Below, in pieces: positions 39,238 through 39,899 of a stretch of 64,000 nt of DNA (position 1 is the stretch's first letter; the number at the start of each line of letters is the position of its first letter). The position numbers and the translations under genes are program-made. Below the pieces are notes generated by a model. That model searched no databases, was not told where the DNA came from, and saw only the letters and a list, made by a program, of their open reading frames with translations. This DNA is from Escherichia phage IME08, in sequence record NC_014260.1. One strand, given 5' to 3'.

Positions 39238-39447
39238 TTATTTTAGCCATGAAGAATTTTCAGAGACCCAGCTATCTATATCTGATTGAGGGCCAAAGAA
39301 GTAGGCAACCCCATTAGATAACTCTCCTGAAAGCCAATTTATACCTTTCAGGCTTTCTTTAAATTCTTCAGGAGTACAGGAAACCTCTATTGCCACCGAA
39401 GAGGCGGATTCCATTGCTTCTGTTAAGAATTCATTGTAGGTTTTCAT
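39238..39447 (-). CDS. Internal-protein-like protein with capsid targeting sequence (ipI-locus position)
   Basis: 69 aa, N-terminal [11 protein letters not shown]; directly upstream of 57B where T4 carries ipI. Confidence 0.55.
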
Positions 39448-39899
39448 TTTAAATCCTCGGCCCAGTCGAGCTTCAAGGGTTCTTTATATTCTCTGTCTAA
39501 AACAACAGGAATCTGGACATCTCCACTAAAGCTAAGTGGTCCTACATTATAAGACAGGGTGATATGAGGGGTATAATCATCAAAATCGTGCGTAGCACCT
39601 AAGGTACGAGCATACTGATGGCGGCATTTAAGATACTCTGAATTGAGAACCAATACCAGGACAGGAGAATCACCATGTTTCCACACTTCAAGATGTCCGG
39701 TCGAAGCAACTTCAAAACTTCCGGATGCAACGGTGTATGGAACGTTGACTCTTGAATAGCAGATTGTAGAATGGAATTTTTCACGAGGAACTGGATTAGG
39801 AACCTTTAAAGTGCGCTGAAGGTTTTCCAGCGCATCTAAAGTTAATTCAGAGAATTTTGCAGCAACGTATAGACCTTGAGCAAAATCTTCAGTTTTCAT
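39444..39899 (-). CDS. 57B: gp57B, 2H-phosphoesterase-fold protein (Acb1 anti-CBASS nuclease homolog)
   Basis: 151 aa (T4 57B 152); two H-x-(S/T) motifs (HSTICY, HITLSY) typical of 2H phosphoesterases; synteny ipI-57B-57A-1. Confidence 0.7.

Follow-up and report, generated by a model that had tools for sequence, protein, structure and literature searches.

The gene at positions 39444–39899 on the minus strand of the sequence of Escherichia phage IME08 encodes, with a probability that we put at roughly 93%, an ortholog of the anti-CBASS enzyme Acb1 in a JS98-like T-even phage (genus Dhakavirus). The window, i.e., the whole stretch of DNA that was analyzed, comprises 64,000 nucleotides of NC_014260.1. 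According to the list of open reading frames (ORFs) and the translation, the coding sequence of acb1 (57B) starts with ATG, ends with TGA, and specifies 151 amino acids; it is full length, with no frameshift and no premature stop. The preliminary description, which gave no strand, had taken the product to be a 57B protein with a 2H-phosphoesterase fold that belongs to the family of Acb1, the name reported for T4 gp57B. Indeed, T4 gp57B was given this name by Hobbs et al. 2022 (PMC9117128). As a gene family, Acb1 is not new: it was defined in T4 in 2022 and is represented by a Pfam entry as well as by crystal structures, and nothing is added to it here.

Homology to the Acb1 Family

The family assignment is borne out by several comparisons. 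The protein matched Pfam PF23474 (Anti-CBASS protein Acb1) from end to end, with residues 8–149 aligned to profile positions 1–144 of 144 (E 1.2e-58, 197.4 bits; the curated cut-off is 27 bits). T4 Acb1 (gp57B, NP_049750.1; NC_000866) is 84.8% identical (128/151); the alignment has one gap, of one residue, near the N-terminal end. The Acb1 of Erwinia phage FBB1, whose structure has been solved (PDB 7T26), was found with an E-value of 1.6e-58 and 65% identity across 140 of the 151 residues. When a profile made from ten homologs was used as the query, Acb1 structures ranked at the top: 7T26 reached an E-value of 1.5e-65, and 9Q2G, which scored 0.023 with the single sequence, reached 1.8e-12. None of the NCBIfam models matches the protein.

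We infer the 2H fold, which had also been proposed in the preliminary description, from the 65% identity to the 1.1 Å crystal structure 7T26, described as a compact 2H fold. Because a single-sequence AlphaFold2 model was unusable (pLDDT 40.5, pTM 0.32), the fold assignment is made through homology to 7T26 and not through an independent model.

The earlier observation of two H-x-(S/T) motifs at the spacing of a 2H phosphoesterase also holds. The protein contains HSTICY (H43–Y48) and HITLSY (H112–Y117), and it has no H-x-[ST] motif other than the corresponding tripeptides (HST at 43–45, HIT at 112–114), which fall in separate halves of the protein. The two His residues are 69 positions apart, which equals the spacing of H44 and H113 in T4. 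By itself, such a motif pair is weak evidence for a 2H phosphoesterase: given the composition of the protein (6 His, 13.9% Ser plus Thr), the probability of at least two H-x-S/T motifs by chance is 0.20, and 5.6% of the shuffled versions yield a pair 55–85 residues apart, which is a 2H-like spacing. The 2H observation owes its significance, far above chance, to homology along the entire protein (E 1e-58, for the Pfam Acb1 model as well as for a solved Acb1 structure) and not to the motifs.

Homologs of the gene were detected in 1469 phage records, 1460 of which span at least 80% of the query; most of these phages infect Escherichia, Klebsiella, Shigella, Acinetobacter, Vibrio, or Aeromonas. 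A protein 100% identical to IME08 Acb1 is present in the GenBank entry of Escherichia phage C6. A search of the window for a second acb1 copy found none, and none of eight supplementary files of Hobbs et al. 2022 mentions JS98, JS10, Dhakavirus, or WG01, which says nothing for or against the assignment.

Conservation of the Active Site

Hobbs et al. 2022 (PMC9117128) assigned to T4 Acb1 a catalytic tetrad (H44/T46/H113/T115), four nucleobase-stacking residues (Y12, W74, F107, and W147), a residue in contact with adenine (E141), and a lid at the C-terminus, and found an H44A/H113A mutant to be catalytically dead. The lid was later delimited to residues 147–152 (bioRxiv 10.1101/2025.08.21.671373). 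The residue numbers published in PMC9117128 fit the sequence of T4 gp57B exactly; the IME08 protein is one residue shorter at the N-terminus.

All nine published functional residues are identical in the two proteins, namely Y11, H43, T45, W73, F106, H112, T114, E140, and W146 in the numbering of the window. The first catalytic motif, H43-S44-T45 (39765–39773, minus strand), reads CAT TCT ACA on the reverse complement and corresponds to H44-S45-T46 of T4; the second, H112-I113-T114 (39558–39566, minus strand), reads CAT ATC ACC and corresponds to H113-I114-T115. T4 gp57B has the same HSTICY and HITLSY. The C-terminal lid, W146-A-E-D-L-K151, which includes a base-stacking Trp, is encoded at 39447–39464 (minus strand) and differs from its T4 counterpart (W147-ADDLK152) by one Asp-to-Glu change, i.e., WAEDLK versus WADDLK.

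Conservation of the tetrad extends well beyond T4. H43, T45, H112, and T114 are invariant in ten aligned homologs with identities down to 33%. The alignment includes Krischvirus Phi1, RB16 (Pseudotevenvirus), Vibrio phage D484, and Acinetobacter phage KARL-1, as well as an Aeromonas phage, Salicola phage SCTP-2, and Klebsiella phage Roth88 (33–44% identity). The preliminary description had proposed an alignment to T4 gp57B and had named loss of either catalytic His motif as the outcome that would speak against the assignment. No such loss has occurred: both motifs are retained when the sequences are aligned with care, and they do not vary among distant homologs.

Predicted Enzymatic Activity

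T4 Acb1 cleaves AMP-containing cyclic di- and trinucleotides (3′3′-cGAMP and cUA as well as cAAA) 3′ of adenosine in a metal-independent manner, does not cleave cGG or the 2′-5′ bond of 3′2′-cGAMP, and in vitro acts as a block on the effectors Cap5, CapV, and Cap4; a T4 Δacb1 mutant suffers a >300-fold loss of replication, and only on CBASS hosts (PMC9117128). In the same study, 9/9 additional Acb1 homologs cleaved 3′3′-cGAMP and cAAA. T4 Acb1 also consumes 2′3′-c-di-AMP (10.1101/2025.08.21.671373). Because IME08 Acb1 is 85% identical to the T4 enzyme and every functional residue is intact, it very likely shares the T4-type cleavage of cyclic oligonucleotides; its activity, its substrate range, and an anti-CBASS effect in vivo are predicted from this likeness.

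By analogy with T4 and FBB1 Acb1, IME08 Acb1 would be a small, metal-independent phosphodiesterase of the 2H fold. A U-shaped pocket would clamp the cyclic di- or trinucleotide of a CBASS system between Y11, W73, F106, and W146, E140 would read the N6 of adenine, and the lid (residues 146–151) would shut over the ligand. The tetrad H43/T45/H112/T114 would then provide acid-base catalysis, in which the 2′-OH of adenosine in the strained ligand attacks the 3′-5′ phosphodiester bond. In this scheme, the ring is opened 3′ of adenosine via a 2′,3′-cyclic phosphate intermediate to give a linear product, which would be GpAp in the case of 3′3′-cGAMP. The expected substrates are AMP-containing and 3′-5′-linked (3′3′-cGAMP, cUA, cAAA, cAAG, and 2′3′-c-di-AMP), while c-di-GMP and the 2′-5′ bond of 3′2′-cGAMP would be left uncleaved. 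With the signal removed, we propose that the CBASS effectors (nucleases, phospholipases, and others) would therefore stay off and the phage could complete its cycle.

Divergence from T4 Acb1

A true Acb1 homolog might still have a substrate preference shifted relative to T4, for instance one that spares 2′3′-c-di-AMP, the decoy of the Panoptes defense, or one that favors trinucleotides. IME08 Acb1 carries 23 substitutions relative to T4 Acb1, which cluster at the N-terminus and at T4 positions 57–59 and 76–81, plus I43F. The latter (F42 in the window) adjoins the catalytic His, and the five substitutions at T4 positions 76–81 lie just past the stacking Trp (W73 in IME08), so that the loop following this residue reads HGDSPV in IME08 and TQDGST in T4. 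Related 2H phosphodiesterases are known to differ markedly in their use of 2′3′-c-di-AMP versus 3′3′-cGAMP, with selectivity set by the enzyme core (10.1101/2025.08.21.671373), and Panoptes selects against T-even phages that bear Acb1. Against a shift stands the conservation of every published ligand-contacting residue and of the lid, apart from its single Asp-to-Glu change. In addition, the alignment of homologs revealed that the positions at which IME08 differs from T4 are also variable across the Acb1 family, and activity on cGAMP as well as on cAAA was seen with all nine other homologs in the study of Hobbs et al. We therefore regard it as very unlikely that the Dhakavirus Acb1 with F42 and the HGDSPV loop prefers other substrates than T4 Acb1 does. 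If it did, one outcome would be reduced cleavage of 2′3′-c-di-AMP with cleavage of cGAMP retained, and a phage that spares 2′3′-c-di-AMP in this way would keep its anti-CBASS activity without tripping guard systems.

At the DNA level, acb1 is 72% identical to T4 57B. The comparison gave a pN of 0.138 and a pS of 0.756, a value at which synonymous sites are saturated. The low pN alongside saturated synonymous change therefore indicates strong purifying selection on the protein.

Relation to RNA Ligases

The assignment as an Acb1 ortholog conflicts with several public labels. In RefSeq, T4 57B is called an 'RNA ligase', and the same label is attached to the best PHROG match of the IME08 protein (phrog_755, E 4.2e-66) and to many phage records. 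If these labels were correct, the gene product would belong to the LigT/2′-5′ RNA ligase type and would ligate or repair RNA by acting on its ends, and a weak hit to Pfam PF13563 (2_5_RNA_ligase2, E 0.028) points in the same direction. However, this match is partial and reaches 14.9 bits, compared with 197 bits for the Acb1 profile. We rejected assignment to the LigT/2′-5′ RNA ligase family, since 14.9 bits is below the curated threshold of 27 bits for PF13563. Moreover, the T4 protein is biochemically a cyclic-oligonucleotide phosphodiesterase, the deletion of which costs the phage >300-fold only on CBASS hosts. The label is best explained by automatic transfer within the 2H superfamily, to which both kinds of protein belong, and a function in RNA ligation or repair is very improbable.

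Such labels are out of date or wrong. Likewise, the protein of phage C6 that is identical to IME08 Acb1 is annotated as 'hypothetical protein'. We also noticed that its 57A neighbor in C6 is labeled 'tail tube protein' (the two genes form the pair ORF154/ORF155).

Genomic Context

The 8-kb segment around acb1 is 93–97% identical to those of phages IME281, AnYang, C6, and JS98, which places the window in Dhakavirus, among the JS98-like T-even phages. The minus strand carries, in the same order as in T4, gene 2 (DNA end protector), gene 3 (tail completion protein), gene 1, 57A, and acb1. Gene 1 (40122–40883, minus strand), a synteny marker, encodes a dNMP kinase of 253 amino acids (Pfam PF21448 DNMK, E 8.3e-90). 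The upstream neighbor of acb1, 57A (39899–40129, minus strand), encodes the tail-fiber assembly helper of 76 amino acids and matches Pfam PF17594 (GP57) over its full length (E 2.6e-26). The gene thus lies directly downstream of 57A and gene 1, as in T4, in agreement with the T4 57B position named in the preliminary description; this location supports the assignment to Acb1 but does not define it.

In the course of this comparison we found that phage C6 has a gene labeled 'site-specific intron-like DNA endonuclease' between genes 2 and 3 (positions 1290–1844 of the C6 sequence). In the window, the program-listed ORFs of these two genes directly adjoin or run into each other at about 41556–41640 and leave no space for such an insert. 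The homing endonuclease between genes 2 and 3 is a presence/absence polymorphism between IME08 and C6.

The stop codon of 57A and the start codon of acb1 overlap by one base in a TAATG junction (39897–39901, minus strand; AGAATAATGAAAACTG); in T4, the two genes overlap by four bases. The IME08 junction suggests that acb1 may be co-transcribed and translationally coupled with 57A, and this overlap makes it probable that acb1 is expressed from the 57A transcript. At the other end, the ATG of the downstream ORF (39238–39447, minus strand, 69 amino acids) overlaps the acb1 stop codon in an ATGA junction (TTAAAATGAAAACC). Together, the two junctions suggest co-expression of acb1 with its neighbors. 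Simple scans detected no promoter belonging to acb1 itself. Sigma-70 promoter-like sites (13 versus 12.2 expected) and terminator-like sites (3 versus 2.9 expected) occurred at chance level, and the T4-type late promoter motif TATAAATA was absent from the minus strand between positions 37202 and 42863.

The integrity of the acb1 ORF matters because natural acb1 knock-outs exist, such as BASEL phage Bas43 with its nonsense mutation. Although acb1 is dispensable on CBASS-free hosts and is lost under selection by Panoptes, the full-length ORF, the intact catalytic tetrad, the strong constraint on non-synonymous change, and the start putatively coupled to 57A make it hardly credible that the IME08 gene is a comparable inactive relic, i.e., a conserved ORF without a working enzyme.

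The region downstream of acb1 differs from that of T4: where T4 has ipI, IME08 has other small ORFs with N-termini resembling capsid-targeting sequences. A T4 ipI ortholog was searched for downstream of acb1, and none was found in the window. The first of the small ORFs, at 39238–39447, occupies the ipI position and matches phrog_23867 (E 4e-43), a family labeled as of unknown function. Its occurrence is restricted to 27 phage records, most of them from Dhakavirus and a few from Citrobacter and Erwinia phages, compared with 1469 records for Acb1; in C6, a close relative, ORFs of other sizes stand in its place. Six minus-strand ORFs of the window begin with MKTY(Q/N)EF (39238–39447, 38935–39159, 38660–38932, 36549–37166, 27957–28259, and 27138–27437). 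Their N-termini resemble the capsid-targeting sequence of T4 ipII and ipIII (MKTYQEFIAEA; ipI has MKTFKEF). Four of the six match PHROG families of internal virion or head proteins, and the other two match families of unknown function. Three of them follow immediately downstream of acb1, one behind the other, at the place of T4 ipI, which is an anti-GmrSD factor. These ORFs resemble a variable repertoire of injected proteins and possibly represent anti-defense cargo.

A cluster of three tRNA genes at 37402–37634 on the minus strand, about 1.8 kb downstream of acb1, comprises Arg(TCT), Asn(GTT), and Met(CAT); its position matches that of the larger tRNA cluster of T4.

A Second Anti-CBASS Gene and Its Implications

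The window also contains a homolog of Acb2 (T4 vs.4), a sponge for cyclic oligonucleotides. The ORF (25649–25927, minus strand) encodes 92 amino acids that are 66% identical to T4 Vs.4 (tblastn, E 2.4e-33) and match Pfam PF24729 (Acb2_Tad1_hairpin, E 3.6e-16). It lies about 13.5 kb from acb1, so both known anti-CBASS genes of T4 are found in one phage. The main value of this analysis is a correction of the annotation: the phage can be recorded as a carrier of Acb1 as well as Acb2, both of them anti-CBASS genes, and there is little discovery value beyond this.

A phage with both genes would be expected to grow well on hosts that carry CBASS. Recent literature indicates that Acb1 could also make it vulnerable to Panoptes-type guards, which sense the loss of cyclic nucleotides. 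Type II Panoptes restricts T-even phages with an intact acb1, and escapers carry mutations in acb1. For type I Panoptes, deletion of acb1 from T4 was without effect on defense; over-expressed Acb1 lowered colony formation in an activation assay. Growth on CBASS hosts and vulnerability to Panoptes both bear on the prediction of host range and on the choice of phages for therapy.

Comparison with Known Systems

Among the characterized relatives other than T4, FBB1 Acb1 (7T26/7T27) is aligned with IME08 Acb1 at both HxT motifs and at the lid Trp. It differs in having Phe instead of Trp at the position equivalent to W74, followed by a one-residue insertion, and Tyr at the position equivalent to F107. 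2H PDE-9 (PDB 9Q2G/9Q2Y, deposited as 'Anti-CBASS protein Acb1') falls, by structure, into one group of phage 2H phosphodiesterases with IME08 Acb1; it cleaves 3′3′-cGAMP and acts poorly on 2′3′-c-di-AMP, and its lid is N-terminal (10.1101/2025.08.21.671373). In contrast, the lid of IME08 Acb1 is C-terminal and of the T4 type.

An Acb1-like match was also seen outside the group of free-standing enzymes. The portal protein of cyanophage Pam3 (PDB 8HDS chain A, residues ~497–617; not in the window) matches the Acb1 profile over its C-terminal ~110 residues (E 2.3e-8), with both H-x-T/S motifs aligned (HVTIAYS and HISLS). This suggests that an Acb1-like 2H domain may be fused to the portal protein.

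The LigT/ThpR proteins and the generic 2′-5′ RNA ligase (2H) superfamily are likewise small alpha/beta proteins with a pair of H-x-T/S motifs. Apart from the PF13563 match, the trace of this kind in IME08 Acb1 is a match to an AKAP7-type 2H domain (E 0.91). The substrate of the characterized Acb1 ortholog is a cyclic oligonucleotide immune signal and not RNA ends. Acb2 (T4 Vs.4), although present in the same phage and directed against the same class of CBASS signals, is a protein unrelated to Acb1 and is described in the literature as a sponge that sequesters the signals rather than cleaving them.
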